From NCBI GenBank assembly GCA_008632985.1, contig QPGO01000001.1:1086404-1150403 (forward strand): DNA of 64,000 nt, read 5' to 3'. Below are positions 1 through 52,958 of this stretch, in pieces; position 1 is the first letter of the stretch, and each line of letters opens with the position of its first letter. The stretch is from Psammoneis japonica. Taxonomy: Eukaryota. Position numbers and translations under genes: made by a program. The notes under the pieces were generated by a model. The model ran no database searches and had not been told where the DNA came from. It saw only the letters and a list, made by a program, of their open reading frames with translations.

Positions 1-898
1 AGAGTCCTTGATCCTCAGGTGCTTGGAGTGAATCACATTGGAACAAATCTTCTCATTTGGCAGACAAAAAATGGTGTTCCATCTTGAGGCACTGCTCGGA
101 CTGAGCTTCTTCCACTTGGAAATCAATTCCAGCAGAACTGATGCAATTTGTTCCTGTTCATGGAAGAATGTGCAAAGGCACATTGGTTGAAACTTTCACT
201 TTCTACATTTTTGCCTTCTGTGATGTGTGTGCACAATGCACCATGCTCAAAGAACAAGTGCAAACGAAAGCAGAACGGAGTGCAAAAAGTGGAAATTGTG
301 AGAATGAATTTTGCTCTGTGATTTTTGGTTTCTCCGAACAAGTTCTCAATGGCCTGAAGCTTCTGCGCTGCCCCCACAGACAAAAGGCCTTTTGGAGAAT
401 CTGATTGTGACAACAGATGGTCCGAACGCAATTGGCATTGACGCGTGAGATGTCAGCATCATCTGTTGATCACATTTGAAATTTTTGACTTCCGATCAAC
501 TCTGTGTGATTGTTCTGTCCTTTGCATGCATCCACGACTGCGGCACACTTGACACACAAACAATGATGTGCAATCATGTGTGTGCATGCAACAGCCACAT
601 GCTGCAGATGCTGCAGTGATCTCTGTGCCCTTGGTCATGCACAGCTGAATGGTGGTCTTGACAGCTCAGCTCAGCTCCCCATGGAATGTGCTGAGAGTCC
701 CAGCATTGTTTGGAAAAAGTCAGAGAATGATGAGGTTGGCAGAGCTGCACACTTTTGTGAGCTCACTGCTGGTTTTTGCACTTGACTTCATCTGGTGTTT
801 CTGTCTTGCAGCCTCCCTTCTTTGCCTTTCTTTTTGTGCTCAGCAGAAGCCCACCCTCATCCAGATTGCAACACACAGCTGCTGACAAGAGCCAGTGT

Positions 899-1349
899 AT
901 CACGGCGACGTGTCACAGCCTTTAAATGTCACAAAGGGTGTGACAAAAACAACCTTTTGTCTGCATGCATGCTGCATTGTGAATTCACAGCGGAGTGGTT
1001 CATCGCAACCATCAGGCAGGAGGCCAGGGGTTCGAAACCCTGAGTGGGAGTTGTCTGCAGCAACGTTGATCACTGTCGAACGGGTAAAACTCTGTGCAGT
1101 TCTGTGTGTTCCTTCGCACGCACCCACACTGTTCCACCAAAACCGTGCAGTGTCAGTGCACGTCAGTAAAGAGCCGCATGGATGTGCGACACATGGGGAG
1201 GAGTGCAGTGTGCAGCTGCCAATGAGAGCCAATGAATCACGGCGACGTGTCACAGCCTTTAAATGTCACAAAGGGCGTGACAAAAACAACCTTTTGTCTG
1301 CATGCAAAGGGCATGACAAAAACAACCTTTTGTCTGCATGCATGCTGCA
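899..1349. repeat. Direct repeat pair (899-976 and 1236-1349) with a 13-bp hairpin; second copy has an internal 36-bp tandem duplication
   Basis: atcacggcgacgtgtcacagcctttaaatgtcacaaaggg..tgacaaaaacaaccttttgtctgcatgcatgctgca occurs twice; the sub-unit variants are gggTGtgac, gggCGtgac and gggCAtgac. Confidence 0.9.
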
Positions 1350-2049
1350 AGATGCCACAATTTGAATTTGCAGCATTGGCAGCTCTGACTGCATTCCCAA
1401 GGAGGTGATGTGCAATTGGGTGCTTTTTCTGGAAATGTTTGATGCCAAGGAAAAACCCATGATGTGGCAGATGAAGTGGTGAGCCAGACAGAGTCCAGGC
1501 ACACATGAGACCATGTCTGCTGGATGCCGCACAACACATGGGCCATGCTCCAGGATGTGAGGGTGTGCACCCAGCAGCATGGCACACACACACACACACA
1601 TGAGCACAGAGGAGCACAGCTGCTGCTGGGAAGCAGTGTGTGTTGAAACATTGGGCGAGAGATGGCTTTTGAGGACAAACAGACAATGTTGCAGTCAACA
1701 AAACACTGATGACTGTTGAGAATGTGGCAAATTTGTGCTTGCAACTCCTGATGAATTTTGTTCTTGCTCCCACTTTTCAGTTTCTGCACCTGGTTGACAC
1801 AGCAAATGGCCATGACAGCATCAGAAAAGTGTGCTGTGATCCCCACATGGTGAGTTCAGGGACCGGTGAGACTGGAGTGGATTGTTCAGCAAGCCATGAA
1901 AACAGAAGACAAAAAGTGTCAAGGCAGACATGGCATGACACTCAAAAAAGTGGCATCAATCGAAGGTTGAGAAACAGTCTCTGGAGGACATTGCTGCAAG
2001 GCAGCTGTGTCAGTCTGCTGAAAGAGGGTGGTGTGGTGAAATTGTCTCA

Positions 2050-2870
2050 GGCCAGAAGAAACATGGACAAGGGTGCAACTGAGTGTGAAAGCATGAAAGA
2101 TTTGAAGGAGTGGGTGCACAACACCGTTGCCAAGTCACATTCACAGGCAGATGCTTGTGTGAAAACTGTGAAGAAAACAAGCAAGAACATTGGAAGAGTG
2201 CTTGGTCTGGAGATGTGAGGACTGACATCTCTGAGGCAAGAGAACAAACCAGAGAATCCAGAGTGTCCATTGGGTGAAACCACATCAGAGAATGACAAGG
2301 CAATCTGGGAGAAACAATGTGATCACAGCATGAAACAGGACGCAATCTACAAGATGCAGAGGGCAAAGGCATTTGACACAATTGTGAGATGGTGCATGAA
2401 GGCCACACATCACAAGGTCAAAGGAGTGACAGAGTTTGCCATTGGAAGTTTTTAAGTTGATCTTGTTCAACGCAAATGGGAGAATCTGCTCACAGTTTCA
2501 GGCTGCCAAGGCTTGGAAGCAGTTGGCAATCATTTGTCAAGATGAAAGAGAGAGGTGCTTCAAAGCAATTGGCTCACAAGTGTTGTGTTGAGGTGGTGGA
2601 AGGGTCCTCCTTCAGTGGGGTCCTCCCACAGCAGAAATTGCCATGAAAGAAGATGGGCTCAGCATGGATGCTGATGACACCTGGAAGAAAGAAAGAAACA
2701 AGTCATTCATGGTGCTGCCAATGGAAGGTGCCAAGGAACATTTGCACATCTTGAAGGACCTTCACTGGCAGTTTGCACTGGGGGTTGACAATCACCCCAA
2801 TTTGGCCAAGGACAAGAAACCTGAGGATGCAAGATTTGCACAAAATGAGAAGAAGCAGATCAAGTGCTGA
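2050..2870 (+). mobile_element. Degenerate Copia-like gag relic
   Basis: Broken frames read SHSQADACVKT, PECP..DKAIWEKQCD..AKAF and LKDLHWQFALGVDNHP. From memory these resemble diatom Copia gag motifs (QADxYVKT, DNYP) with Tyr->Cys/His changes. No LTRs found. Confidence 0.45.
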
Positions 2871-5800
2871 AAATGCAGAAAGATTGTGAAGAAGGACTCT
2901 CCTTTTCTCAATGGCGATGGCAATCATTTGTCAGCAGAGCAAGGTGAAGTGAGCCATGGGAGTTGATGGAGCAGTTGATGGTGTGGCATTGGATGACATG
3001 GTTTCCAAGTGTCATCCTCCTTGGATCAGTGCAGACAAGGCCAGTTGATTGGCAGCTTGTGCAAAGGAGTGTGTTGGAATGTCAGGGTGCAAGGTGGCTT
3101 TTGGAGAACAGACAAACTGCACTGCAGTGTGGATGGCATGCTGACGACTGTTGAGGACATGGCACAAATTTGTGTTCACAACTCCCGTTGAAGGATGGGT
3201 CTTGCTCTCACTTTTTAGTTTCTGCACCCAGTCGATCTAAGGCATGGGAACGCACAAACCTTCTCTAGAGTGCAAAAGGGTCTGGAGTGAAGAGTTTGTG
3301 ACAACTGCCACAAAGACAGGACAGCTGGCATTCAAAAGCTAGAGTGCTGACATTCGGCACGATGTGACAGCTGGTGTTCTGTGCCCACTGGTGGCGTTTG
3401 ATGCAATGTGATGGACAGCATTCGATGCAATGTGGTGGCCAGTGTTTGACAGCTGGTGCTCGATGCAGCATGACAGCTGGAGTTCCCCAATGGCTTCTTC
3501 AGAACAGTGCCATCTCCTCTAGAGAGGAACTTGAGGATCCACTGTTTTCAGGTGGAGGTTCTTCTCCTGGTGTCCCGTTTCTTGGAGCACTTGCTGCTCT
3601 TGCTTTCTTGGCGTCAATGTCATTTTCTTCTGACAATGCTGCTGCAGCTGAATTAATTCGCTTTTGATGTGGTCGCCCATTCATGGCAAATGTGTCCTCT
3701 GACCCAAGCTGTTAAAGGTGATGACAAAAAATGAAGCAAGCCTCCAGTTGCATGAGCAACCACAATGAAGGAGCTTGGCATCAACAACTTTTGATGATGA
3801 CAACAACACCCGCCCATGACAATGCTGCACACGGTCATGCTCTCAGGCACGCAACAAACAAATGACATGAGCAATGAATTCAATGGATGAAGCCAAATCA
3901 ACGAAGTGTAAATGAAACAGCCAATGGCACGCAATCAAAAAACCACAACACTGCACATAAAACATGACTTTGCACAATGACGACAATGCAAGAGTTCCCA
4001 ACAAAGGTGCCGACACGCCACATCTCTCATGCTGCTGGTTGCACACGGCAGATGCAAGGGTGGAGTGGGCAATTTTCCATCATCACTGCAGCAAGCAGAG
4101 GAAGGAGAGGTCAAATAAAAATGCCAGTGGTGACAGGCTCCTTTTGATGGCAATGTAGAGATGCATGTCTTTGAGCAGGGTGTGATGGGCCGGGCTGCAA
4201 TGGGAGCTGAAGAGGGAAAGAATGGTTGGAGCGCATGACAAAGGGTGTGACTGTCCAAACATGAATCTCTCAGTCTCCATGGAGAGCAAGCATCTTGTTG
4301 AACAGTGTTGACATTAAAAGAGGATGTTGTCAGCCATCACAAGCACTGTGCAATTGGACAAACTGCTCAATCATGTGGTGCACAGGTGTGATGAAAATCA
4401 AAGCCACCAACCAAGTCGCCACTGGTGTGAAGACGCTCTTCATCATTGTCCCTGTTGTTCTGGGTGCACCACTTGAGCCAGCACATCTTGGGTGTTGAAG
4501 AGACTGGACCAACAGGACGTCAGCTCTGCAAAAGTGCTGGTGGGTTCAAGTCTCAATGCAAACATCAGGGGAGTCCAAGCACAAGCACACCCTTGTTCTT
4601 TCTGTGTCAACTCAGACTTGTGAGCACCATCAGAAAAAGCCCCATCCAATGCCAATGAGCCACAACAGCTGCAAAGCTGTCAAGATCAGAGATGCTGATG
4701 TGTGGACTTCTGCTGGCATGCACTTCTGTCTGGGCTGAGCACCTCACAATGACTGGGGGCTCACCACGCTTGGTTGCTGTCAAAAGCTTGCCTGGTTTTT
4801 AGCATCTGATTGACCACCACAGAGCAGCAGTCTTGGCAATGACCAAACAATGGTGGACATTGAGAGGTGCACCAACCATGCACAAAAAAAAAAAAGTGCT
4901 GTTTCTTGTTTGCCACAAACAGAGCTGCCGTCAGCTGCATGAAGAGCACAAACACGGCCAACTGTGCTGGGTGAGACAAGAACAAAAACAGTTTCTGTTG
5001 GCAGCTCTGGGTCATGGAGATGCCAGCTCACGCATCTTGTGGATCAGGAAAAAATTGCTTTCAACCTGGCTGAGAAACATGAGCACTGAGGTTTGGCATT
5101 GTGCCCATCCTTCTGCCACCACCATGCATTTTGTGCAACAAATAACGGAGAACTTCCCCCCTGATGTCTTGCTGCTTCTTTCCTTCTTGCAGTCAGTTGT
5201 TGTGAAGTCCAGTCATTGATCTCAATGCTTGGAGGAGGGCACTGATTTGGTGCTGAATGTGTGCTGATGTGTGCAGAGCAAATGTGCAGGCAACCTGGTG
5301 ACATGTCTGAAGGTTTCTTGCCTGGATGTGAAAATGCACAAAATGGTGGTGATGTGCCAGCTCTTTGCAGCTGTCCCAAGTGATGCATGGATCCACACAG
5401 AAGGGGTGGCCTGGCAGCAGCTCCAACAGGCACAACAACAAATCAGCAGCTGCAGGCAGCTCTTGGCTTGGGGGCAAAAAGAGCTCCATTCGTCAGAAAA
5501 AGATGACTTTGAGCAGCCACTGAGAGACATGTGAAGAGCAAGGAGGCTGCAATCATTCTGGCAACATGCACGGCATCTGCCCCCATTCTTGATGCCAGAC
5601 AGGTGCATTTTGACAATTCATTCCAAGCTGCTAAGCTGAAGGAAGAGCATCAATGCTGCAGCCAGATGCACAACCAAGAGATGTTGCCCCTGACAAGAAG
5701 AAGCCAGGCAATGGAACAAAAAGCTCAAATGCCATCTCTCAAGCAAGTGATTCCACGCAAGCAATGGCTCCAGAGCAAGGACAAGAGCTGATGAAATGAA

Positions 5801-7449
5801 CCCCAAAGATTTCACCACAACAACTTTGGAGTTTGTTGCATCTGCGCTTGTCCTTGCTGGAGTTGTTGCTTGCATAGAAGCACTTGAAGAAAACCTGATG
5901 TCTGAGCTTTCCCACACTCAGGCTTCCCATCATCACAATGTCCTTGGAGTGGAGACTGCACACAGTGGGTTTTGCTCCACCGGCAGAAGGCTGGTGGTCA
6001 CCAAGTTCATCAATGAAAAGAAACCAAACTTGAGCTCTCAAGACAACAGCCAGCAACAGCAGGGGTCATGTGAAACAACGTCATGCCACCAGCTGGCAGA
6101 GGCCACAAGTGGAGTCATGAAGCTCTGCCTGGGGCTGGAGCATGAGTGTCACATTGCAGCAACAAAAGAGGGGCAGTGTAAGTGCTGAATCAGATTTGAC
6201 ACAGCAAGAACATCAGCAGCCATGGTGAACAGCAGAGAGTCTGGTCAGTTGTCTGACAATTTGTGCACAAGACCTGTGCACCACCACAAGCCACTCTAAC
6301 AAAGGGCAAGCATTTACAAGACTTTGTGTCAGCTGGGGCAGAGACAATTTTTTTCTAGCAGAAAACAAAAATGGGAGGAAGAATGTCTGCATGCTTGGTG
6401 CACATTTGAGACAAGAGGTTGTGCGTGAATCTGACTTGTGCTGCAACAAAAATGAAGCTGTGAATGAGCACTTTGCTGCACGCTTGCACATGTGACAGAG
6501 TCACAGAGCTGAAGAGCCATTCACTTGCACGAAGACAAAGTGAGCACCAAAGTCATTCAGCCATGGCTGTGAGAGTTTGCAGAAGCATGCACCAAAGCAT
6601 CTGAAAGGCAACAAATGATGTGTTCTTGGCTTTCTCCATCCCTTTGCCCAATGAACTGTGTTGCTGCAGTGAGCTTTTCTGGTTTGTTCCTTCTTTGACT
6701 TGTCAGCTCTGTCAGAAGAGGGCACAATGGCCAGTGCCACTTGGGGTCTTGGGTTGCCCAGCTGTGGCACCACATCACTGGTTTTGCTTTGTCAGAACCT
6801 TCCTGCATGGTTGAACATTCGAGTGAATTGTTGTCGTCATTGTGTGGGTGTGAATCAAAATGATGCTCACAGTCATTTTCATTGCTGTGCAGAGCCACAC
6901 AGGTGTCAGCTGCAGAAAGAGCACTGGGTTGAAGTTCTGTGTGTGCACATTGTGCAATGACACAAATGTGCACAAGTGCAAATGACGAGAATTGCTGTGG
7001 TTGAAATGGCATCACACTTGCGATTGAACCAGTTTTCAACATGTGTGACAGGTGTTGAACACAGCAGTGTGAGGTGGTGTGCCAGAGTGTGCTCATTCAG
7101 ACAATGTGCATGGGGAGGCCTCTCATTGCCAGCTGACCATGTGAACTGCCTGTTGCCATGGCACTTGTGGAGCATTCTGTCACCTGTCCATGTCCAGTGT
7201 GCAAGTCTCTCACAGTCACCTTGTTTGTCCATGAAGGGCATTGCCCTGTTGTCCTTGCATGGTGGGAAGTGTGGCAGCAGCACCTGCCAGGCTTTGGCAA
7301 CATCAGCCTTGCAGCAGATGCTGACAATGTGCTGCAACATGTGGCATTGCTGATGTCAATGCAAGAGCTTGTTTGGCGCACCATGCAGGTTCATGACTTT
7401 GGAAAACATTGCAATCATGGAAGTGACTTGGACACAGAGAAATGGTGAA

Positions 7450-7830
7450 CTGAGTTGGTCGACATGATGCTCCAGGATGGGAGAACAGCTGTGCTTGGTG
7501 CCATTCAGATTGAAAAACTGCAAGGCCAAGGAAGGGGATGCTTTGGTGAACCAAGTGCAATGGTCAATGGTGCGGACATGTCAAATCCCACTCACATGTT
7601 TTCTCCCAAAGAATGGCAGTGGCTGAGGTTCGATGGTGGTCATGCACATGTCATGCAAGCTTGTGAGTGCATGGCTGGATGAGGCGGTCATGGTTGCAGA
7701 CAACAAGGGTGCAGCAACCCTGAGGATGACAAGTGGCAGGCACACACCAGAGTGCAGAAGAGCTGTCACAACAACAACAAATTCAACACTCAGGCGCTGG
7801 ATGTGGAAGAGGTTGCAACAATGGGAAAGG
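7450..7830 (+). mobile_element. Degenerate Copia-like gag C-terminal relic
   Basis: VNGADMSNPTHMFSPKEWQWLRFDGGHAHVMQACE resembles the NGVDxSxPxRxFxxxEW motif I recall from diatom Copia gag. Confidence 0.4.
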
Positions 7831-8277
7831 TGACAGGCACAGAGCAGGGCTATTGGGGCAGTGCTTGTGCGTGCACTCTTGATGGTTTGGGATGACAGTT
7901 GTCAGCATTGTCTGCATGTCACACAAATGTGATTGTTTGTCTTTGCTGTTGCTGCTCATGCTGTCTCAACCCCATCCAAACAATGTCAAGAGAAGTTTCT
8001 GGCAGAGTCTTGGCAACCTCCAAAAGATTGTGGTGCAGTTGATCAATGCCATGGCAACTGTGAACAATGCAGTCCCAGGTCATGTGTCTTGAAATGAATG
8101 TCTTTTCTTCAACCCATCTGGGTTCTTTGTGATTTCCGTTTTCTGGGTCTTCCCTGCTCCAGCTCCAACAGAACACAGCTGAGAATGCACCACAGCAAGA
8201 AGAATTTTTTCAGTGTGGGGCACCATTTCTGGTTCACTGCAGCTGATCCCATGTCACCAAATGCTCAACAAGAACAA

Positions 8278-8419
8278 TGAGGGACTGCTCAGGTCTGCCT
8301 CATCGTCCGCTGTGTCTGTCCTGTCTCTGCTAGTAGCTCTCTAGCTAGCCACTGCCAGTGGAGTAGAGGCTCTTCTTCCACATCTGCGCATCTGTCCGTC
8401 GATCGATCGCGCGATAACA
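8278..8419. mobile_element. Possible solo/terminal LTR (142 bp)
   Basis: TG...CA bounded. The reverse complement shares ggacaga and cagtccc motifs with the LTRs at 29532 and 33004. No TSD seen. Confidence 0.35.
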
Positions 8420-8640
8420 ATTCCAAGAGCTCGGCCGCCCACAAGAGATGATTCTTAATTGGTCGCGAGTGGTGCATTGCGCTTGTCATCCGGAGCTACG
8501 TAGAATCTTACGTTGCTTTCAGTACCAAAATTCCAAAATCTCGCTCTGCAACGCGTCGCACAAACACGAAGACGCTGTTGCGGTGAGAAAAACAGCAACG
8601 ACGGCATAGCCGCAATCAGCAAGCGTACAAAAAGCTTACC

Positions 8641-9373
8641 ATGGCTGCACCTCCTCCACAGAGCTTCCCATATGACCACTTGTTCAAAATATTGATTATT
8701 GGTGATGCAGGCGTTGGAAAGGTAAACTTATGCCATGTCAAAAGCACGTAAAACTTTTGAGGAGAAAACCGCAGAAAAAACTCCCCGACTCACTCTCTCT
8801 CCCTTTGTTTCAGTCTTCCATGCTGCTTCGATTTACAGATGACTCGTTTGATGAACACATTCAGAGTACGATTGGTGTTGATTTCAAGGTGAAGCATTTG
8901 GATGTCATGGGCAAACGCGTCAAGCTTACGATTTGGGACACGGCGGGCAGGAGCGCTTTCGCACACTCACTTCCTCGTATTATCGCGGAGCACACGGAGT
9001 CGTTTTGGTGTACGATGTGACTCGTACGGATACGTTTGAGAACCTCCAACAGTGGCTTAAGGAAGTCAATATGTATTCTCCCAACAATGGTGAAGCCGTT
9101 GTGAAGCTCTTGGTGGGAAATAAGATTGATTTGGACCGCAAAGTTTCGAGGGAAGAAGCGGAGGCTTGGGCGAGGAGTCAAGGAATGCTCTTTTTGGAAG
9201 CGTCGGCAAAAACGAAATTGGGTATTCGGCAGTGCTTTATGGAAGTGGTTCAAAAGATTCTGGAGGATCCTGACTTGTTAGCGAATACTGTACCGGGAAG
9301 GCCAAAGATGCAATTGAAACCAAACAGGCCGATTCGAGGTGTCGATGACGATGATGACGGTGGATGTTGTTGA
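8641..9373 (+). CDS. RAB18: Rab18-family small GTPase; exons 8641-8721 and 8814-9373; 1-nt frameshift at about 8947
   Basis: [68 protein letters not shown] and a C-terminal GGCC prenylation motif; GT-AG intron 8722-8813. Confidence 0.93.
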
Positions 9374-9428
9374 TAGAGAATAGCATAATCGGGGTGGTTA
9401 GTAGTAAGTCCGAAGGAAGGAGAATGTT

Positions 9429-10694
9429 TTAAATATCTGGTTCTTCTTCGTCGTCTGACGATTCAAAATCTGAAAGGTCAACGTCATCTTCATCACCAAA
9501 CAAGTCTTCATCGACGTGATCCAGATTATCTGGTATCTCGTCATCTTCGTCATCGGTACTCTCCTCTTCGAGTTGATCGGCAGCCGCTTCGATTGCTTCC
9601 AAATTCAACAAACCACCCGTCTTGCTGAATTGCTGAAATCCCGTCAATCGATCGCTCTTATCCACAATCTTTTCCTTTTTGTTTTTGGATGATGATTTAC
9701 CTTGTTCCTCTTGTTGTTGCTGCTTTTTCAGCTCCTCCATTTCGGCTTCAAAGCGTTTCTTCCATTCCTTGAACGTCTCAGGATTGCAGGGTGTGCCTTC
9801 TTCTCGGCGTTTTCGGACGGCAATCTCTTCGAGTTCTGCCTGTGTCATGGTTTCTTCCTTTTTCTGAGATTCAAATTGCATTTGAGCCAGTGCCTGTATT
9901 GTTACAGAAATGCGAAACAAAAATAGAGACAGAGAGTGAGTTGTTGCACTGGTTATTATCCCGTCGAATCAGTTCCGATTGTACAAGAACGCCTCGACGG
10001 CGCACTTGAAACACATGGATGATAACAGCGACAGGATCTTGACCGTGCAAATTACTTAGTGTTGCGCATTTGAGAAAAACGTGCCAACCACACCAAGGAG
10101 TAGCAGCCGCACAAAATAATCTACGTTATGCGCTCGTAATAAAATGGAAAACTTTGCGAAAGTTTCGTACGCACCTTTGTTTTTTCTGCCTCTTTTTGCT
10201 TTCTCATCATTTGCGCATGCATGGAGGCATCGTCTAGTCCTTTTACGTTGTTATCATTTAACCATTCTCGCAAGGCTTCGCAAACAGCAAAAATAGCAGG
10301 CATTCCCTCGTTTGCTTGTGCTTCAGTGTTGGCCAGTTCGACCAGCTCTGTCTCATGCTCCTTCGCAAGGCCCTGAGAATAATAACGAGTTCAAGACAAT
10401 TCAGCGTCTTGATTTTCGATTCATCCCAAAACCACCGCATAGCAAGATCCTTACCTTTACAATTTCAATCTCAAATTCGGGAAGCTCTTGTTCGGGGTAA
10501 TTTAACGGGATTTTGCAAAGGAGTTTGACGGCTACATGGTTTTGCGCTTCCTCCTCCTCCTGGTCACCACCGCAATCGACCGGCACCAAACGCACAGACC
10601 ATTCAAAGGGTTGTTGATCGTTTACGACTTGAAAGGCGGTATCAAAAATGGCAGCCAAGGCCTCAGCCTCCATTTCTTGTTCTTCGCTAGACAT
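9429..10694 (-). CDS. RWDD1: RWD-domain / DRG-family regulatory protein (RWDD1/Gir2-like); exons 10694-10455, 10372-10175, 9893-9429
   Basis: EEQEMEAEALAAIF, YPEQELP and GMPAIFAVCEALREWL (RWD domain); GTPCNPETFKEWKKRFEAEM...RLTGFQQF (DFRP C-terminal motif); acidic tail; two phase-0 GT-AG introns join the frames. Confidence 0.85.
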
Positions 10695-12166
10695 GATTTG
10701 AGTATGTGCGGTTTTAAGCGGACGACAGGTTCACACAATAAGCCAACTCCAGTAGAGGGTACTCAACAGAGTTTCTTTTTTGTGGGTGGTGCGGTGTCGG
10801 CTGTCGGCTATTGTCTGTTGTCGGTCGGCTAACAGTGTGCGCGGTTTTCGCGCTTCTCAGTTGTCTCTCGTTCTCAGTTCCCATCGCAGCTCGTCTCTCT
10901 CAGAGCCAGAAATCTTCTGAGCGCATGCAACAAAGACAACAACACAGCAAGTGGCTGATGAGAAGTCGCCCCCCTCCACTCTGATTGTTCTCAGAGGTTG
11001 AAAAGACCTCGAAGAAAGCTGCTGAGCTGTGACACGAGAGAGTGCTTTGATCATGCACCGCACATTGTTGCACACCACACGCAGCTGATTTCTGCAAGCA
11101 TCGTCTGAAGAAAACACCTGGGGCAAACAAGAAACAACAATGTGCTTCAAGTGTGAAAGAGCTTATGCATCCACAAAAAAATGCCTCTTTTTTCTGTTGG
11201 CATTTGACAGCACATGTGACAATTTTCTGCAGAGCTTGTGCCCAGAGTTCTCTCTTGTGGGCCCGGTGTCACATGTGGACATCTGAAGAAGAGCGCTGGG
11301 TGTCATGCCAGTGCAGTCAGCCCAGTGCCAAACATGCAAAAAAAATTTTGTGTCATTTTCACATGATGTGCATCAAGACCACAGCATGTGCATGATGCCC
11401 AGCGTGAGGCTGTTGGCATCAGACGAGCATGCACAGGGCCCCACACAGCAAGTCTCTGGGTGTCTTCCAGCCTGCTCATGGCTGCACACTGGCAGATCAT
11501 CAGGAAACACCAAAGGTTCTGCTTGACAATTGAGAGCTTTAAGGAGCTGATGGAGCTTCCTCTCTTGAGTGCTGTGACTCACAGCCCTGAGCGCCACATT
11601 TTCTTGCTCGCCTGAGCTTTGCACAGCTGCACAGCCCCCTCTTGCTGCAAATGATTTTTTTTTGTCAAAATCAAGAAAATCTGTGATGGCTTGAGCTGTG
11701 ATGTCAAAGCAAACACTTTGTTGACTGGCTGCACTTGTGTCTCTCTCAGCACAGAGGAAACGCATGTTGAAACACATTGCCGCCAGCCCTCAAAGTGCAC
11801 AACCACACCACACCTTCAGTGCACACAGATGGATGTTTTTGGGCTCGCAAATGGTTCAGTTGTTGCACAGTTGTGAAGAATTCACAGGTTGTGAGTGAGT
11901 TTCCAATTGCACCGAGCATTGAAGGAATCAGTTTCAATGGTTCAACAGTGAGAGACCAGAGCTTGAACACCCATTGGACACAGCGCGACATTGCCGCAGA
12001 GTGACAACTCTCGGGTGACACTGCGCGATGACGACACGCAGTGCTCCCCGCCAAAGCGCTGTGAACTAAAGTAGAAAACGCTGTAGCGAGGCAGAAAAGA
12101 TCTTAGGCCTGCTTGCATGTAGGCACTGCATCACAAATGCTGTGACAGGTTTTGATCAATCCTATC

Positions 12167-17300: not shown

Positions 17301-17714
17301 CATGTGCTGTTTTGAGTTTGTTTCTTTTTCTTAGATTCAACCAGCAGCAACCTTGTGAGTGCCCCAACTGACAAAGGAAGTTCAAAGGCTGCCCCCACTG
17401 TTTCACTGTCATCTCATCCCAACAGCAGGCCAAGTCAGTGCATCATTGCTTGCTCTCAGCAACCATCTCCCAAAGCATTTTGGTCAATTGCCCTGAGTCT
17501 TGCTTCAATTCATGAGACAAGTCAGCAGTCTCCACTTCTGCAATTGATGGGGTGGTTCCTGGAATGCCAGCACAACCATCCAAAAGCTGCTTGCAGCTGG
17601 GTCACACCATGAGAAATTGTTGTTGCAAAGGAAGTGCAAGCTTGATGAGTTTGTGGGAGACTCAGGCTGGTTTGCAACAAAGACAGGCAAAAAATCTAGA
17701 TTCAGGCCACTCTG

Positions 17715-18000
17715 ACATGACTCACAAGATGGGTTTTGTTTGGCATCAATCTTCTCCACAGCTGTGCACAAACATGCCAGATTCATTGAAGCATGATTCA
17801 TGAGATGGGTTTCACTTTCCCCACATTGCTCTTCACCAGTCTTGCACAAAAATGCAAGTTTTGCTGCTGCAGCGCAACTCCCAAGATGGGTTTCATTCCC
17901 CACTTTTCTTCATCACTGGTCATGGCCAAAACCACTGGATTTATAATGTTGCAACTCACAAGATGGGTTTCACCCCCTGTTTCTCTTCACCAGCTGTGCT
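17715..18000. repeat. Degenerate tandem repeat of about 78 bp, 4 units
   Basis: Core agatgggttt at 17727, 17803, 17884 and 17961 with partly conserved flanks (actcacaag..., ctcttcaccag). Confidence 0.7.
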
Positions 18001-19289: not shown

Positions 19290-19610
19290 GATCTGTCAAG
19301 CTCATGCATGTCTTTGCAAAGGACATGCATGTGCCATTTGTGCTGCATCGCTGTCAAACCAGTGCACAATTTTGTTTCCTTCTCATGTGGCAGTGCGCAA
19401 GCAACATCCTTCTTGACACAAAAGGTTTCAGCACCGTGCGAAGTGCCCCAATGCTGTTTTCGCATCCTTGATCATCAGACAAACTGATCCACTTGTCAAA
19501 CTGTTTGGCATTGACTGAAAACTGTCTTGCAGCAAAAAGTTCAAGAGCACCCACAACTCTTGAAAAGGTTGTTTTGGAGCGGCGTTCCTGCAATCAAGAC
19601 GAGAGACTTG
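19290..19610 (-). pseudogene. ISWI/SNF2-family chromatin remodeller ATPase fragment, frameshifted
   Basis: Joined frames read LVLIAGTPLQNNL/ELWVLLNFLL/AKQFDKWISLSDDQGCENSIGALRTVLKPF/CVKKDVACALPHEKETKLCTGLTAMQHKWHMHVLCKDMHEL. This matches SNF2 motif III and the ISWI LPPKKETK...MQxxWY region. Confidence 0.8.
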
Positions 19611-34829: not shown

Positions 34830-35551
34830 AAGTGGGCTTGGGTTCAAGGCACACCAACCAAGTGTCTCAGCCATCTGGGCATCTGAACATCCGGGCTTGC
34901 CATCACAGGCATGAGACCAGGCACTTCCACCTTGCCAGGCCAAAAACTGTTCCTGACCCTGGAACACTTGTCCCCATCATCAACAGGGGCACCTGCAACG
35001 GTCCCTGCATGGATGTTGTGTAGACAGCAGCAAGGTGTTGCACTGCAGGTCTGTGCCAGAGTTCTGCTTGCTGTGTCCACCCAATGCCATCAATGCCTGA
35101 ATGATGGAGACAAAACAGGAGTGAGTCACTCTTGTTCAAATCTTGCCAGGGAAGCAATGTGGCACTCAGCTTTTGGAGGCTGAACACACGTGCGGGCTTG
35201 GGCTTGAGTCACACCAACCAAGTGTCTCAGCCATCAGGGTGTCTGAACATCTGGGCATGCCATCACAGGCATGAGACCAGGCACTTCCACCTGGCCAGAC
35301 CAAAAACTGTTCCTGACCCTGGAACAGTTGTCCCCATCATTGACAGGGGCACCTGCAACGGTCCCTGCATGGATGTTGTGTAGACAGCAGCAAGGTGTTG
35401 CACTGCAGGTCTGTGCCAGAGTTCTGCTTGCTGTGTCCACCTGATGCCATCAATGCCTGAATGATGGAGACAAAACAGGAGTGAGTCACTCTTGTTCAAA
35501 TCCTGCCAGGGAAGCAATGTGGCACTCAGCTTTTGGAGGCTGAACACATGT
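34830..35551. repeat. 360-bp tandem duplication in degenerate DNA
   Basis: cacaccaaccaagtgtctcagcc...ggaggctgaacaca is repeated at exactly +360. Confidence 0.95.
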
Positions 35552-38500: not shown

Positions 38501-40810
38501 TGCTGCCCTCAAGATGATCCCATTTGACATTCTTCCAATTTGGACTAAGCACCCGTTTGAACTGATCAAGAGCCACCCGCACCAGAACAATCTCATGATC
38601 CTAAGTCACTGAGCTCCATTCAGGGATTTCCTCCTGCTGCGGGCCATCATTTCCAACGTTGATGCCTCTCTTGATGATCCTGGTGAGCTGGATGTCTTTC
38701 TCAGCAACACCCAACATGGAGACCATCTGCACAGAAAGACGGTGGATGCTGGGGAAGACAAGAACAAGCAACACAAATTTGCTCAACAGAAGATTGTCAA
38801 ACGATTGCCATGATCCTCAAGGAACCAGACAGTCCTGCTCTTCATCTCAAGGACCCTCCCCAAGCACCCTGCGCGGTGTCTCCAGAACCAGAACCCGGCC
38901 AATCCTCCCCTTGCAGCTCCTCTTTAAGCCCTTGATTTGTCACCTAAAGACAAGGTGCCAGATCTGCCTCCAATTGTTGAGGAAACTCCAACGGAAAGCA
39001 ATCCTCCTCCTGCAGAAGAACCTGTGGAAACCATGGAGTGTTTTGTAAATGAGCTTGCTGCTGTGGAAATTCCTCTGGATGATGAGGCACAAGCACTGCA
39101 TGGTGTTCACAAAGCTTGCATCTACAGGATCAAGTTGTCACCCACCATTGCACAGACTTGACCATGCATTGTCTGTGGTGATGGCCACTTGTTCCATGAG
39201 TGCCCGGTCTTGAACAATGCTGAGCATCTACACACTTGTCTCATCTGATTCTTCCAATTCCTTCAATGTGACCAACGTGCCCAAGATGCACTTGAGGATG
39301 GCAAAACCAAAAAGGATTTTTCCTGGGGCCATTGTTGCGTTTGGACAAACAATGCTGCCCATCTCTTCCCAATCCAAAAACTCATGCAAGCGGGGCAACT
39401 GCAAAAGAGGGTCTAACAGACTCATTGCCTCCCACTGAAATGCCTCTTTCACATGTCTCATTCGCCAACCTTCTTTCAAACTTGTCGAAGGCCAGTGCTC
39501 TGGATCTCAAGACGATTGCAGATGATGACCCTGACACCAACAATCAGGAGAGGGGAACACCTTCTCATGAAGCCTTCATAGAAGAGACTGACATCCCCCC
39601 ATCCAGTGATCAAGACCAAGATTTTGAGCACCTTGACATGGCCACCAGCCAACACTTGTCACCTTTGAGTGCAGCACGCATCTCCCCAATTTTTTCTCCT
39701 CTGGAATCACCTGCAGTTTTTGAATCTTTGGCTGCTCCTGTCATCCCCATCAATCATGTGATGCATGATTCAACAACACACCACACACAAATTGATGCTG
39801 GTGCTTGGGCATCCTGTGCAGGTGACAAGCACCTCCTTCATGCCTGCACCCCATTTGGCCCAGACAATCCTTGTCCTTTGAAGATGCTCCCTGCTGCTGA
39901 AGGCTCTGACATGGTCCCTCATGGCTTTGGTCATTTGCAAGCACCTGCTGCAAATGCTGATGGTTTCCTTCTCATGCGCACCTTCCACCATCCCAGCCTG
40001 CGTTCCACCTTGATTGACAAACGCGACTTTACGCGGGCTTCTGGTTTTTGCACCAAAAACCATTTGCTCTGAGTCTCTTGAGAAGACTTGTGCTGATGGA
40101 ACTTGCACATTTGCTGCTTCGACTGATGCCCAAGAGGTGGTTGTCCATGGCATTCTCCGACATGGAAAGGTTTTTACCCAGCCCCCAGTCCCACCGTCTG
40201 TGAGCAATGCCTCTTTGACACCTGCAACACCTGACTCGACGTCGGTTGATGACATTGATGATGCATGCCAATGTGCAGTCTTCTGTGTCAACATTCAACA
40301 AACACCATCTGATCCTTGGATGACAGACACTGAGTTGTTTCCCATGCAATGCAATTCTGTTGCACACCCATCAACACCTTTGCCAAGTTCTGCCCCAGTC
40401 CGCTCTCTCACAGTCGAGACTGAACGTCTCCTTTGGCACCAATGCCTTGGACATCCCAGCGATCACTGTTTGTGTCATGCTCACAAGCACATCAAAGGGG
40501 TCCTAAGTTCTGCCATGCCAACCCAGTTCTTGACTGACAGGATTTGAACAGGATTTGGATGCGCGCGAAGTATCGCGCGCTGTTTAGTTTACCGCGCACA
40601 GTTTTGTGTGCTTTAGTTCCGCGCGTTCACGCGCGATGTAGTTTGCTTTCGAGCCACAAGGCTCACAAGAATAATAACAGTAGCCCGATTATACCGACTT
40701 ACCCGTCTTTCGGCTCCTGTGACGGTCTCTGAGCGGAGACTCATCTGCTATTTAGACAGCAGTAAGGAGTTATTGTTTGAATTCTTGCCATTTGCCTTCA
40801 ATTTCTGTCA

Positions 40811-40827
40811 GATTAACAGTCTTGCTC
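40811..40827 (+). promoter_or_regulatory. Putative primer-binding site complementary to a tRNA-Asn(GTT) anticodon arm
   Basis: gattaacagtcttgctc directly follows the LTR; its reverse complement GAGCAAGA-CTGTTAA-TC is an Asn anticodon loop with closing pairs. Confidence 0.6.
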
Positions 40828-47420: not shown

Positions 47421-50400
47421 TTTACCGCGCACAGTTTTGTGTGCTTTAGTTCCGCGCGTTCACGCGCGATGTAGTTTGCTTTCGAGCCACAAGGCTCACA
47501 AGAATGACAACAGCAGCCCGATTATGCCGACTCACCCGTCTTTCGGCTCCTGTGACGGTCTCTGAGCGGAGACTCATCTGCTGTTTAGACAGCAGCAAGG
47601 AGTCATTGTTTGAATTCTTGCCACCTGCCTTCAATTTCTGTCATTGACATTTGCCCCATGTGCATCCAAGCAAAGCAAGTCAAGACACCTGCTGGACCAA
47701 ATTCAACTTGAAAGGCAACTCAACAGAGCATCAAGGCCTTGCTGTGGATTTTGCTTTTGCCGGTCAGGCATCCAAGAATGAAGAATGCATGTCTGATTGT
47801 CTTGGCTGCAATGGTGAAATGTGTTGGATCACTGTCTACGACCACAAAACACGCATGCTTCATGGTGTTGCACGGATTTCTGAAGCCAGCCCTCTCAAGT
47901 GGCTTTGCCGATTTTTGGATCAACACTTGCCGAATTGTCATGACAAATGTGTGTTGGTGGACCAAGGTGGGGAATTGCACAAGAATCCCAAAGTTTGTGA
48001 CCTCTTTGAACAAGAATTCCAGCATGACATTTGTCCATCTGGTGCTGGCATGTCCAATCAATGCAACCCTGTTGAACGCTCACATTTGACTGTTGAGAAT
48101 GTGATTTGTGCAATTTCAATCGGCGCCAACCCCCCGATCAGATTCTGGCCCAGTGCTTTTTACCATTGCCTCCGTGTTAAGAATGCCACTCCTGCAAAAG
48201 ACCAAGATGCATCTCCTGTCACCCTTGCAACTGGGAAGGTTGAAGATTTTACTTCCTTGAAGACTTTTGGATGTTGAGTGTGGGCCAAATGGTCCACAAA
48301 ACGCTCTGCCACCTTCTGCTCCAATTCCAAGAAAGGTGCATTCCTTGGATGTCTCCAGAACACCCTGAAGAATGTTCTTTGGTGGGATCCAGAGACTGAC
48401 AAAGTCAAGACAGCCAAACATGCATGACATGACGAGGGCATGAATGACCTGTCTTTGGACCAACTTCTTCGAATGCCACCCAGTTGCAATGCATGGAAAA
48501 TGGCCAGCCTTTTCTGGCTGAAATGCAGGACACAACTGCTCCAATGTTTGCCTCTTCATCAAATCCTTTTGCCAACTTGCACCATGAAACGTCCTCCCAT
48601 GGACCCCACCCATGGTTTTGTTTTCTCCCAGTGCGCTCTCATGGACCATGACTGTGTCTCGGAAATCAAGCAGCGCAGTCCCGCGGCCTCCTTGTTCTCC
48701 TCTCTCCGTGCTGCTCAGAACAAGCTCATGGGTGCACACGTTATCTCCATCAACAAGCACAAAGTCTTTGCACCACAAGATGCTGAAAAAGCACTCCTGC
48801 AGGTCCACTGTGATGAGATTCCCACCTTTGAGATTGTTTTTGCACCTGAACGACATCTGGACCCTCGCACTCTTAATGAGGCTTTTGAGGAAGTGGAGTT
48901 GTTTGACCCTGATTCAAAGGAGGATGATTCCCATGTGCCTGAACTCAATTTGGAGGATGTGCGATCCATTGCAGCTGTCCTCCACCCTGATGATGATTTC
49001 TCTGATGAAGCTGTTCCAACAGATGTCTTTTGTGCTCATCTTCATGCTGTCAGTTCCCGTGCTGTCACTCCGGAAGAAGCTGCTCTTGATTGTCTTGCCC
49101 GTGCCAAGCTCCATAAACTTGAAACATGGCCGGAATGGGAAGAAGGAGAAAAGCGTCAATTGGACCAATTTTGCGCACTTGGTGTGCATGGTCCCCCGCA
49201 ACTGTGCCCTCCTGGAGTGAACGTCATGCATCCGCATTGGGACTGTGTGGCAAAACCAGATGGACAATGCCGTTCTCGACAATGTGGAGACGGACCCAAG
49301 TCAGCTGTGCCAGCGTTGCACAAACTGACTCCACGCATTCTTTGTGTGTGGAACGCTTGATCAAAAAGATGTTTTTTGCTCTCAGTGCTGCCATGTCCCA
49401 TTGAATTTTTGGCGGTGATGCCCGAGATGCACATGCTCATTCTGCTGGTCCTTCACAGCCGGTGTTTGTTGCCATTGATGATGCCTGTGCTGCATGGTGT
49501 GAAAGTCACTTTGGCATGAAAGCACCCCGCCATTGCATCCTCCCGCTTGAGCATGCTCTCCAAGGCCATCCCGAGGCTGGTGTCCTGTGGGAGAAGCACA
49601 TCAATTTGATTCCAGCCAGTGTGAAACTCCTCTTCTGCTGCACTGCTCATGACAAGTGCATCTGCTCTGGTGAATGTGATGGTGTCAAGGTTCTGTCACT
49701 CCATCAAGTTGATGATTTTGCACTTGCTTGTCCTTTGAGAAGATTGCAAAAGAGATCCATGATCACATTGGAAAGGCTCTCCAGATGGAGAATGAAGATG
49801 CTCCTCCGTTCAAGCATTTGGGCCCAGTCACCGCATTCAATGGTGTTGATGTCATTTAGAATGATGATTTGATTACAATCAACATTGCCAGCTGCCTTGA
49901 TTGTGTCTTCAAGACCCATGGATGGGATGCTCCTGCTGCAAATGAAACTGACACTGACTTCAAGGCTGCGCCTGTGCCGGTTGATTGCATTGCTGAGCTG
50001 TGTGCTGCTGAAGGCCCCGAGGAGGGCACTCCTGAGCATGATGCCCTTTCTGACTCCCACGGCTTTTCCTGCCACTCTGTCTTGGGTGAGTTGGTCTTTG
50101 CTTGTCAGTGTTGTTGCTTGGACATTGGCTGTCCCATTGTTGCCTTGTCCAAGTTCTCCAAGGCTCCGGCTGATGTCCACTGTGATTCTCTCAAATGCAT
50201 GGCTGAGTGTCTGCAGCGCACCAAAAATTGGGGTTTGACACACAAGAAGACTGAACGTGATCCGGGTCTGCCTCCCCATGACTTTGAATGGCTTGAGGAT
50301 GATCCATCCCTTCCTGGCTTCCCCCATGCTGATGATCCTTTTCAACTCCTTGGTTTTGTCAATGCAGCACATGCCAACGAACTGTGGCATCGTCAATCCA

Positions 50401-52958
50401 CTGCTGGATGTGCACATGTCCTTGCTGGTGCTGCAGTTGATTGTCGTTGCTGCACACAGACCATTGCAGCCACCAGTTCCACCAAGGCTGAATTTTTTGC
50501 AGCTGTCACTGGTGCGAAGCAGACCTTGCACCTCCGAATGGTCCTTGAAGAGCTGGGCTTTCCTCAATGTGACCCTGCTCCCTTGCACATTGACAACTCC
50601 TCCACCATCCAGATGATCAACAACAAGGTGCCTGCAGAGCGCTCCTGCCACATTGACACTCATCATTTTGTGATCCAAGACTGGCGGAAAATTGTCACAA
50701 GACACATCCCGGGTGTCATCAACCCTGCTGATGTGCTGACCAAGGCTGTGGGCTGGACACTCCATTCCCACCACACCTGTTGTCTGATGGGACACTGCCA
50801 TTGTTTGCCATTTTGTTTGTGTCTGTCTCTTTGTTCTGCTGTTCTGGTCCTCATTTTTTCTTCGGATTGTCTCCTTTCTTGATGAGCTTTTGCATTGCTC
50901 ATCAGGGGAGGGTGACAGACATCTGAGATGGGGAGTGCACTCCCTTGTGTCGGACAGACCAGCACAGACAGCACCAAGAGATCTGATGATCTCTCTCTGC
51001 TCACTTTCTTTCTCATCTGGCACATGATTGTCATCTGTCCCAGACACCAGTCAGATCGTCCCGATGCCGACAGTCTGCAAAAATCTCCCGTGCCAAGAAC
51101 CACTGAGCTTGTGTTCCTGTTTGCACTTGAGACTGGAGCTTTTGACTCATGTGGAGGACTGGTTTTGTTGGGCCATTGGGTGATGCTCTGTTTGGCAATG
51201 CAGTGCATCAGAAGTTGGGTGCTTTCTTTCCAATGACTTTGGCCACAGCCCAGCTTGTTTGTCAGTCTAAAAATCTTGGGCACACTCCAGAACAAGCACA
51301 AGTGACAGGGCCACTGAAAATTTGTGGTGTCATGGTCTTGGCTGCTCAAAAATTGTGCTTGCATCCATGGCAATGTGCAGCTGTCAAGTTGCTCAAAGAA
51401 ATGCAACAAAGCTGCCTTCTCTTTGTGTGCCGTTGACATCTCTTTGGAGAGAGGGGTGACTTCTTGAGTGAGTCTCATTGCTTTGCCATGACAGCGCTGC
51501 TCTGACAAGAAATTCTCTTCTTTTGTTTGAAAATGCATGCACACATGTGTTGCAGATGTGACTCTTGACACACACTCTAGCCTCAGGTGGGACTTCACAT
51601 GACAGCAGCCAACAAAATTCTGTGCACAAGCTCTGCAGGTCTCGCTCTCTTGTTTGCAGGTGCATTTGTCCATGCACCACTCTAATGAGACTTGAGAGTG
51701 GTGCACAGAAAGTGTCAAAAGTTGTTGAATGGACAGCTTGACAACTGCGCTGCAAAATGACACCAAGCTCTGCCAAAGCCACGCAGAAGTGTGCATGTGG
51801 GGCAAAGGGAAAAGACAAAAAACTGTTGACATGTCACAGCTCAGCAGTGCAAGGCCCCTCCCAGAGCTGGAGCTCATCTCTTGTTCTTTGTCATTGTGGC
51901 TTTCTGCACCTTCCCTCATTTTGTTGCGCACTCAAGGCACGCACAGTTGGCCGCCAGTCATTTGCTGGTGTGCACTGCAGCCAAAGGAAATGTGATTGTG
52001 ATTTGATCTCAGTCTTTTGTGAGGCCCAACTCAAAAACATTTGTCCTTGGTGATGCTCGTCAATGTTGTCACATTCAAATGTGATTTTCGGGTGTGTCAA
52101 TTGCTTCAGAGACATGTCCTGCACAATTCATGAAGAGCCACACCTGCGAAGCTGGACGGTGCCAAATTGTGCGGGACATCCCGCGATCAATCGGGCATTG
52201 GGCGTGCTGTCGCTTCTGTGGTTGCGCGTTGGTCCCGGAGCATCAACAGTCATTGTCAAAATGACCAATCGTTTCGGAAATGTCAGTGTGACAGGCATTG
52301 GGCACATGTATGCACTCGTGATTTAGAAGAATAATGCTGCACTTAGAACCCATGCGACAATTTTGGTAAGACAAACATGCTTGCGTAGTCGTAGATGTGA
52401 TGTCAGTAACGGCGAAACTAGCCATAGGGCTTATGGCTTACTTTCTTTGGTGACTGTGCGACCATCATGAGAAAAAGGGTGGTTTCTTGGTAATGACCGC
52501 CTAAATGACCTTTGAAACATCGCCAACATCCTCGGATTTATGTCAAGAGTCATTGTGTAGTCGTATGAACTGCTGACTCTTCGTGGTCGCTCGTATTGGG
52601 CTACGGGATTTCTTTTTTTTTGAAGTCATCTGTCCGAGCGCCGGTCACAAAATCTTTTCACACGAAAACAATAACGCACACAACTTCTTTCACCCGAAAG
52701 AGTTTGATCGAGTGTGAGATTGACCAAGTGTGAGTGAAAAATGGAGTTTTGTGGTTTAAATGAAAAGGTTTCTATGTTGGACATGATACCTGTTCTTCTC
52801 AGCCGCTAGGGAAACATACTCGCTTCAGAAATGGGCCTTTTAGCTCTTGAAAACCACGGAGTGTCTTCTTATCCTCAATTTCTCTCTTTGTTTCCCCGTT
52901 TTTTTTTTCGACAGGAATTGAATATTTACAACAGATATCAGAGGCATAGATTGTGACT

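Follow-up and report, generated by a model that had tools for sequence, protein, structure and literature searches.

The question raised by a 64-kb stretch of contig QPGO01000001.1 of the diatom Psammoneis japonica (positions 1 to 64,000; here called the window) is what has removed the dinucleotide TpA from its transposon-derived blocks and spared the gene islands beside them. Dinucleotides were counted in five pooled blocks (1-8250, 10900-12020, 14650-20020, 22420-40530 and 47650-52180; 37,384 bp) and in four pooled gene islands (8251-10899, 12021-14649, 20021-22419 and 52181-55376; 10,873 bp). The blocks showed observed/expected ratios (o/e) of 0.047 for TpA, 0.236 for CpG, 1.85 for TpG and 1.78 for CpA, whereas the corresponding values in the islands were 0.51, 1.00, 1.18 and 1.18, at a nearly identical GC content (0.483 and 0.476, respectively). 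Thus, TpA depletion in the blocks was tenfold beyond the genomic background represented by the islands, and only 118 TA were left, compared with 2,497 ± 39 in mononucleotide shuffles. Other dinucleotides were nearly unchanged between blocks and islands (AA, 1.19 versus 1.20; TT, 1.16 versus 1.12; AT, 0.89 versus 0.92), TC had an o/e of 1.00 in the blocks, and the block edges were sharp at a resolution of 200 bp. These results bear out a preliminary description of the window, which had reported TA- and CG-poor blocks saturated with TG and CA; its boundaries agree with ours within about 100 bp, and a partly affected young Copia element (40535-47643) was absent from its block list. We consider it very likely that a regionally targeted process has acted on the chromosomal DNA of diatom transposons and converted TpA to TpG or CpA on either strand, in support of the A:T-to-G:C change at TpA on both strands of transposon DNA that had been put forward in that description.

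The consequences for the encoded proteins were in agreement with this composition. The 170 stop-to-stop open reading frames (ORFs) of at least 90 amino acids in the blocks contained 0.09% Tyr, 6.0% Cys and 5.4% His, as against 2.14%, 3.06% and 3.38%, respectively, in ORFs outside them, so that the block ORFs are indeed almost free of Tyr and rich in Cys and His, as previously described. TAA and TAG together occurred 88 times in the blocks versus 1,070 for TGA, and because of this scarcity of TAA and TAG long ORFs are found on both strands.

To read the direction of the change, conserved residues of the elements were compared with those of their relatives. The young Copia element was mapped by tblastn against 78 full-length relatives (64 to 74% identity; 717 conserved columns), whose median contents of Tyr and Cys were 3.9% and 1.0%, respectively. 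Tyr was kept in 10 of 36 conserved Tyr columns, the others reading TGY (Cys; 19 columns), CAY (His; 4), Phe (2) or Trp (1); that is, 23 of the 26 lost codons were TGY or CAY. By comparison, 626 of the 681 conserved columns with other residues were kept (Fisher's test, p 5e-19). For its part, the old Copia ORF at 49860-50879 (340 amino acids from stop to stop), which corresponds by homology to the C terminus of a Copia reverse transcriptase (RT) and RNase H (best E value, 5.8e-83) and in which Pfam finds no domain, contained no Tyr, 27 Cys and 22 His, so that the Tyr-free RT/RNase H frame of the preliminary description is confirmed. None of its eight conserved Tyr columns was kept (4 Cys, 2 His, 1 Phe and 1 Leu), whereas the median Tyr content of its relatives was 4.1%. 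The RT and RNase H ORFs of a Ty3/Gypsy element likewise lacked Tyr altogether, and comparison of its RT with that of Ty3 (PDB 4ol8), read by eye in two alignments, gave HIDD for YLDD, HCRN for YYRR, NH for NY and CCHV for GYHQ.

Since conserved Tyr residues have become Cys or His and relatives have normal Tyr contents, the families do not appear to be natively free of TA, and the direction of change is read as TA to TG or CA. This control of native composition is at the protein level; DNA of relatives with normal TA was not found among viral contigs. The possibility raised at the outset that the families were TA-free by nature is thus not borne out by their relatives, which are neither Tyr-free nor TA-free.

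The timing of the change could be read from the long terminal repeats (LTRs), which are identical at integration when they belong to a single insertion. The young Copia element (plus strand, nested in old Copia) has 276-bp TG..CA LTRs at 40535-40810 and 47368-47643, flanked by an intact target-site duplication (TSD), TTGAC, at 40530-40534 and 47644-47648. The Ty3/Gypsy element (22240..27888, minus strand) has 175-bp LTRs at 22240-22414 and 27714-27888 and an intact 5-bp TSD, ATTTC, at 22235-22239 and 27889-27893. As both TSDs are intact, each LTR pair is taken as a single insertion. The young Copia LTRs were 95% identical, with 15 TA and 21 CG in the 5' LTR and 6 TA and 20 CG in the 3' LTR. 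Nine of their 12 differences were TA in the 5' LTR versus TG (three) or CA (six) in the 3' LTR, the other three being one CG versus TG and two adjacent T/C changes. All nine TpA losses therefore fell in one LTR (binomial p 0.004), where 9 of 30 TpA bases had changed compared with 2 of 116 other A/T bases (p 9e-6). In this LTR pair the change was about 24-fold commoner at TpA than at other A/T bases, an outcome in favor of an enrichment of A-to-G change at TpA over other contexts.

The Gypsy LTRs were 82% identical. Its left LTR, which adjoins a glycosyltransferase gene, contained 7 TA and 10 CG, and its right LTR 1 TA and 4 CG; six TA-versus-TG/CA and seven CG-versus-TG/CA differences were observed, every loss being in the right LTR, and four more sites were CA/TG swaps. 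The mutated copy is the 5' LTR of this element, and CpG was lost there too. Within both insertions the TpA differences all ran one way (9:0 and 6:0), and both TSDs are intact, which places the change in chromosomal DNA after integration.

TpA loss could also be separated from CpG decay. From about 41300 to its 3' end the young Copia element was partly hypermutated, with an o/e of 0.24 for TpA and 0.93 for CpG (41301-47643), whereas its 5' LTR and leader (40535-41300) had a TpA o/e of 0.97. About 65% of TpA had thus been lost while CpG was retained, in concordance with the nearly equal CG counts of the two LTRs (21 versus 20), and TpA loss either outpaces CpG decay or proceeds independently. 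Deamination of 5-methylcytosine (5mC) at CpG, already judged insufficient in the preliminary description, cannot account for TpA loss, which in this element runs ahead of CpG loss. To some extent, the same element also speaks against the coupling to methylated chromatin suggested there. In older DNA both processes were evident: in the old Copia ORF at 49860-50879 only 3 of 10 conserved Arg columns were kept (R to H, two; R to C, two; R to Q, two). In the old blocks, including DNA without an RT signal, TG and CA products were about equal and conversion was nearly complete. The order of TG and CA along every block was random (runs test, z ~0), with no sign in any block of long, processive, strand-coordinated events. 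An excess of TG versus CA on the sense strand according to element orientation was also considered and was dropped, as it was inconsistent among elements.

The targeting of the change did not follow repeat status. A 660-bp tandem array (58458-64000, reaching past the end of the window), in which eight complete units were compared and found 96 to 98% identical, retained a TpA o/e of 0.60 to 0.69 and a CpG o/e of 1.1 to 1.16, and the differences among its units (27 transitions and 19 transversions) were of the usual mixed kind. Conversely, the stretch 36001-36667 within an affected block is single copy by the depth of contigs from the public run X1. Since the array is untouched whereas this single-copy DNA is affected, targeting is not induced by repeats or homology, and since the young Copia is spared in its 5' LTR and leader, a mutated domain can end inside an element. 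We infer that targeting follows chromatin domains rather than repeat identity.

The bases flanking the surviving TA were then classified (R, purine; Y, pyrimidine). In the blocks, 1 TA was in the RTAY context, 58 in YTAR and 59 in mixed contexts, compared with 95, 63 and 220, respectively, in the gene islands (chi-square p 2e-15). The mutated part of the young Copia contained 13, 20 and 37, and its spared 5' part 22, 7 and 23. RTAY is thus the most sensitive context and YTAR the most refractory. Tyr codons are of the form N-TA-Y, and their 19:4 outcome in favor of Cys over His in the young Copia fits a per-strand 5'-T-A-Y context if adenine is the base targeted. Together, the classes of residual TA and the outcomes at Tyr codons, on which the statement of context rests, suggest a per-strand preference for TAY.

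The letters of the blocks were reproduced by the X1 Logan contigs (word depth, about 55), which showed no differences over 36001-37028, two over 50991-52267, and between zero and three in each block piece compared. The concern that TA might reappear in accurate reads thus finds no support in the X1 contigs, which show the same TA-free letters and may themselves derive from the source of the assembly.

The footprint also exists outside this assembly, though its other carriers may be the same organism or a relative. In a search with the old Copia ORF, 130 of the best 150 representatives listed aligned over at least 150 residues; among these 130 listed relatives, four contained no Tyr and three more at most 1%, with raised Cys and His. 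The contigs of ten representatives that were looked up came from ENA (seven), JGI/IMG (two) and Logan (one). A query with a single protein gave two true loci, on metagenome contigs L001 (1-2314) and L002 (1-5378) from different archives, and two spurious ones (L003 and L004), which were used only as a control of composition. L001 and L002 both encode one of these Tyr-poor Copia relatives, the fragment P0407 (100% identity). L001 and L002 had o/e values of 0.25 to 0.28 for TpA, 0.34 to 0.37 for CpG and 1.6 to 1.7 for TG/CA, and the same YTAR bias was observed among their surviving TA (RTAY, YTAR and mixed: 1, 23 and 22 in L001; 4, 49 and 61 in L002).

In this account, A:T is changed to G:C at TpA on either strand, nearly to completion, in transposon-derived DNA, whereby Tyr codons become Cys or His codons and TAA and TAG stops are erased. 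A second, slower and separable process, ordinary decay of CpG to TpG or CpA, adds to the TG/CA excess in older elements. Targeting is by domains with sharp edges that can fall within an element, as with the spared gene-adjacent Gypsy LTR and the young Copia, spared from its 5' LTR through the leader. The agent would be an enzyme recruited to silenced chromatin. Its likeliest identity, which we propose tentatively and hold to be a little short of an even chance, would be an adenine deaminase related to TadA/ADAT2 that acts on DNA and reads 5'-T-A-Y and whose inosine product is copied as G.

Several observations weigh against this interpretation or narrow it. The silenced status of the target DNA is deduced, and the scope is a single 64-kb window. 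Direct polarization is limited to coding parts and the two LTR pairs, the ancestry of the remaining block DNA being read from composition, and the double differences of CA versus TG between copies could stem from ancestral CG as well as ancestral TA. At four sites among the 40 listed of 923 variant places, the young Copia of the window has TA where nearly all the X1 depth has TG or CA, and some of the TA loss in this family may therefore have been inherited rather than made in place. The X1 data may be the source of the window assembly and hence perhaps not independent of it. The 19:4 ratio of Tyr to Cys over Tyr to His would also suit a component acting on the sense strand at the RNA stage, and the per-strand counts in the LTRs are few and discordant (TAY, 6 of 14, versus TAR, 3 of 16, in Copia; 1 of 6 versus 5 of 8 in Gypsy).

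The same footprint would be left if the modified base were thymine. In that case T at TpA in silenced DNA would be oxidized by a TET/JBP enzyme to 5-hydroxymethyluracil (5hmU) or 5-formyluracil, the latter of which mispairs with G, and mispairing or misrepair would yield T-to-C changes; as TpA is palindromic, A to G on one strand is T to C on the other, and sequence tests cannot separate this route from adenine deamination. According to the accessible parts of the sources, studies of the 1980s on a dinoflagellate found that 5hmU took the place of T mainly where T stood in a TA or TC context (PMC11071213), and 5hmU has been linked to the silencing of transposable elements in dinoflagellates (PMC11572971); yet 5hmU lacked sequence preference in Breviolum (PMC11071213), TpC is undepleted in the blocks, and no report of 5hmU in a diatom turned up, though no search was aimed at that pair. 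We regard thymine oxidation as unlikely. Still less probable is editing before integration, in which retrotransposon RNA or cDNA would be edited from A to I at UA by an ADAR-like or TAD-like enzyme and the changes fixed on insertion. Such editing would suit the fact that all the recognizable elements are LTR retrotransposons as well as the 19:4 sense-strand ratio, and late deamination of minus-strand cDNA could affect the 3' LTR only, which is the polarity of the young Copia. But RNA editing predicts identical LTRs, and two pairs with intact TSDs differ at TpA; late cDNA editing predicts changes on a single strand and a fixed polarity, neither of which was seen, since the Copia 3' LTR was changed on both strands (three TG and six CA) and the Gypsy element was mutated in its 5' LTR, with loss of CpG. 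The nearly equal and nearly complete TG and CA products of the old blocks, which extend to DNA without an RT signal, point the same way, as does the refractory TAR context, given the preference of ADAR for a 3' G. In addition, the targets reported in the chlorarachniophyte Bigelowiella natans are integrated DNA viruses (10.64898/2026.01.13.699255, accessible text).

Two further explanations would dispense with a mutator. If the families avoided TA natively, through general under-representation of TpA or selection for RNA stability, the low TpA of the gene islands (0.51) and the four listed sites at which most young-family copies carry TG or CA against TA in the window, so that some depletion may be inherited, would be expected; the normal Tyr contents of the relatives, the conversion of conserved and catalytically placed Tyr to Cys or His in copies that are frameshifted, the differences between LTRs of one insertion, and a depletion tenfold below background with sharp edges make this highly improbable. 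As for a sequencing or assembly artifact, by which modified bases of transposons would be miscalled in a long-read consensus (A as G, C as T), methylation-linked miscalls do occur in nanopore consensus sequences, and the library type is unrecorded for both the window and X1. The block letters are repeated by X1 contigs at about 55-fold word depth, the signature is shared by metagenome contigs L001 and L002, which come from separate archives and one of which bears a name in the style of a short-read assembler, and the intermediate states (young Copia, spared LTRs) and the protein-level pattern are coherent; an artifact is hardly credible. Two candidates were rejected on composition. Error-prone repair of the Pol-eta type (WA to WG), which the preliminary description had entertained, is disfavored by ApA and TpT, undepleted in the blocks (1.19 and 1.16, versus 1.20 and 1.12 in the islands), and GC-biased gene conversion by the similar GC content of blocks and islands (0.483 versus 0.476) and the restriction of the loss to TpA.

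The recognizable content of the blocks consists of LTR retrotransposons of the Gypsy and Copia types. In a Pfam run on 177 ORFs of the blocks and the young Copia, nothing was found in most blocks, about half of the block DNA was without a recognizable domain, and the young Copia integrase and the old Copia RT/RNase H were missed, yet both were seen by homology searches. Block A (1..8250; no strand assigned) had a TpA o/e of 0.02 to 0.13 and a CpG o/e of 0.08 to 0.33 per kb, with 29 TA left and no credible Pfam match among its 32 ORFs. Block B (10900..12020; no strand assigned), between two gene islands, had 2 TA left in 1.1 kb, and block C (14650..20020; no strand assigned), without a recognizable domain, had 15 TA left and a CpG o/e of 0.02 to 0.40. 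Block D (22420..40530; no strand assigned) had 60 TA left in 18.1 kb and contains the Gypsy interior, an old Copia fragment at 31445-32062 (Pfam RVT_2, 1.8e-5), unclassified repeats, a 360-bp tandem duplication at 34834-35553 whose two copies differ by CA/TG swaps, and, at about 37671-40534, the portion of an old Copia that covers gag and pre-integrase (Pfam gag_pre-integrs, 1.9e-4). Block E (47644..52180, plus strand; 12 TA left) is the integrase/RT/RNase H part of that old Copia, which is interrupted by the young insertion (about 37671-40534 plus 47644-52150). Losses of this kind affect annotation: the disappearance of TAA and TAG gives long false ORFs on both strands, such as those of 448 and 422 amino acids antisense to the old Copia, and RT and integrase that have lost their Tyr residues escape Pfam, so that gene and transposon annotation will be biased in such genomes.

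In the Gypsy element, Pfam recognized rve (weakly), RT_RNaseH_2 (2e-23) and RVT_1 (2.6e-12). Its RT region carries a 263-bp tandem duplication (24503-25028, minus strand; 93% identical) that doubles the mutated HIDD catalytic motif, and the duplicates have since diverged through CA/TG swaps and CG/TG changes. The young Copia has two frameshifts, near 43454-43469 and 45924; 1-bp indel variants in the X1 contigs match at 43451 and 45922-45923, and other copies of the family thus appear to be open in frame. Summed X1 contig depth was 67,000 to 132,000 for the young Copia and about 500 to 2,300 for the old Copia, compared with ~55 for single-copy DNA. X1 contigs also link 40492 to 47651 through 16 other letters at a depth of 48; this link could represent either another old Copia or an allele that lacks the young insertion. 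Contigs that run from 47611 back into 40798 suggest that the young Copia also occurs in LTR-LTR forms, tandem or circular.

Among the unaffected islands, 8251..10899 (TpA o/e, 0.38 to 0.48; CpG, 0.8 to 1.1) contains a Rab18-like exon at 8882-9373 on the plus strand (Pfam Ras, 3.4e-32), whose named best matches were all from diatoms (73 to 83% identity). The island at 20021..22419, which includes the spared Gypsy LTR, had a TpA o/e of 0.35 to 0.59 and a CpG o/e of about 1; its Glyco_transf_49 (GT49) gene (20345-21613, plus strand; Pfam, 2.4e-51) had its top named match in a diatom transcriptome. The matches of these two genes assign the host to the diatoms and not to Bigelowiella. In another unaffected island, a 102/198-bp tandem repeat (13773-14371; 77 to 85% matches) lies inside a minus-strand ORF (13182-14480) in which no Pfam family was found. 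The 660-bp array belongs to a giant repeat-protein gene (55377..64000, plus strand), which is not hypermutated and served as a control. Its ORF runs for 2,211 amino acids to a stop at 62012 and is continued by further ORFs; it contains Ig-like repeats of the DUF7507/DUF11 type and a Pro/Thr/Ser-rich tandem region at 56361-57803 with periods of 165, 318 and 483, and probably encodes a cell-surface or frustule-associated protein. That even the gene islands show a TpA o/e of just 0.51 may reflect ordinary avoidance of TpA or a weak genome-wide trace of the process that acted on the blocks.

Regionally targeted TpA hypermutation has one prior description that we could find. In mutation-accumulation lines of B. 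natans, de novo hypermutation of TpA to TpG or CpA was reported (Mettrop et al., bioRxiv 10.64898/2026.01.13.699255; here and below as far as the accessible text of this preprint goes). Of 302 nuclear single-nucleotide mutations, 231 fell in an integrated nucleocytoplasmic large DNA virus (NCLDV) and a virophage, at a rate about 1000 times background; all but one of the 231 were A to G or T to C, all these being at TpA according to the authors (10.64898/2026.01.13.699255). TpA-depleted coding sequences of B. natans were enriched for RT and DDE domains, and an ADAT2-like adenine deaminase was proposed as a candidate (10.64898/2026.01.13.699255). Diatoms, retrotransposons and flanking-base preferences are not mentioned in the accessible text (10.64898/2026.01.13.699255), nor is a TpA pattern in the accessible parts of PMC2806351 and PMC4504042. 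No description of TpA hypermutation in diatoms was found in full-text literature searches, whose coverage leaves out subscription-only papers. The suggestion that the mutator is new therefore stands for diatoms within the literature searched but not in general, the same hypermutation having been reported in B. natans.

The two cases share A:T-to-G:C change at TpA giving TpG and CpA, confinement to selfish or foreign DNA with host genes spared, and the TpA-depleted, CpA- and TpG-enriched clusters left behind, and we infer that the process is of the same kind. They differ in host, a diatom (Stramenopila) here and a chlorarachniophyte (Rhizaria) there, and in target, as the main targets here are LTR retrotransposons. 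The depletion is deeper here (o/e of 0.047 versus 0.45 in the B. natans NCLDV insert). CpG decay overlies TpA loss and RTAY-sensitive and YTAR-refractory contexts are seen here, neither of which is reported in the accessible B. natans text. The B. natans events were observed directly as they arose, whereas those of the window are historical footprints.

Compared with fungal repeat-induced point mutation (RIP), the likeness is that transitions at one dinucleotide ruin resident transposons and leave a dinucleotide footprint. The direction is opposite, as had been stated from the start: RIP makes TpA from CpA and lowers the GC content, whereas here TpA is removed and CpA and TpG rise to ~1.8 at a constant GC content. 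Whereas any duplicated DNA is a target of RIP, the present process left the array of 96 to 98% identical units untouched and affected DNA that is now single copy; nor do TG and CA form strand-coordinated runs here (z ~0). With 5mC-driven CpG decay, the window shares the CpG o/e of 0.24, the Arg-to-Cys, -His and -Gln changes of the old element and the seven CG-versus-TG/CA differences of the Gypsy LTRs, but as 5mC deamination cannot remove TpA or Tyr codons, it explains the CpG half only.

The context-dependent, deaminase-type hypermutation of selfish nucleic acids recalls the editing of retroelements and viruses by ADAR and APOBEC3 in animals. The substrates of those enzymes are RNA, or cDNA that has yet to integrate, whereas here LTRs of single insertions differ, both strands are changed and TAR is refractory; moreover, APOBEC changes C and not A. 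ADAR favors a 3' G neighbor. It also favors a 5' U, as quoted in 10.64898/2026.01.13.699255. A 5' T neighbor is present here, and the survival of TAR speaks against a preference for G on the 3' side, with small per-strand counts in the LTRs. TadA and ADAT2 naturally deaminate A34, the base after the conserved U33, and a T-A context is therefore native to these enzymes. The UACG loop recognized by TadA and the YAC preference of early adenine base editors would fit the TAY bias. To our knowledge, no natural DNA-editing member of the TadA/ADAT2 group has been established in diatoms; adenine base editing in the laboratory relied on evolved enzymes because none of natural origin was known. If the process is enzymatic, it would amount to natural DNA editing from A:T to G:C at TpA.

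The window therefore extends this type of hypermutation to a second lineage, distant from the first, here on retrotransposons and almost saturated, and adds its independence from CpG loss, its independence from repeat status and the RTAY/YTAR bias. Diatoms and chlorarachniophytes might share an ancient, chromatin-directed rather than repeat-directed mutator, a "reverse RIP" widespread in protists of the Stramenopila-Alveolata-Rhizaria (SAR) group, a proposal to which we give somewhat less than even weight. The same caution applies to the joint proposal that such a shared mutator, either a naturally occurring adenine deaminase of DNA or an enzyme that modifies thymine, would act at 5'-T-A-Y in silenced domains and rewrite selfish DNA until neither Tyr codons nor TAA/TAG stops are left. 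If true, this "reverse RIP" would have been missed so far because GC content is unchanged. With the footprint seen in both a diatom and a chlorarachniophyte, deaminase, TET/JBP and methyltransferase genes can be profiled phylogenetically for co-occurrence with it. Beside RIP and CpG decay, it represents a further form of dinucleotide-specific transposon destruction, invisible to RIP indices and to GC-based scans.

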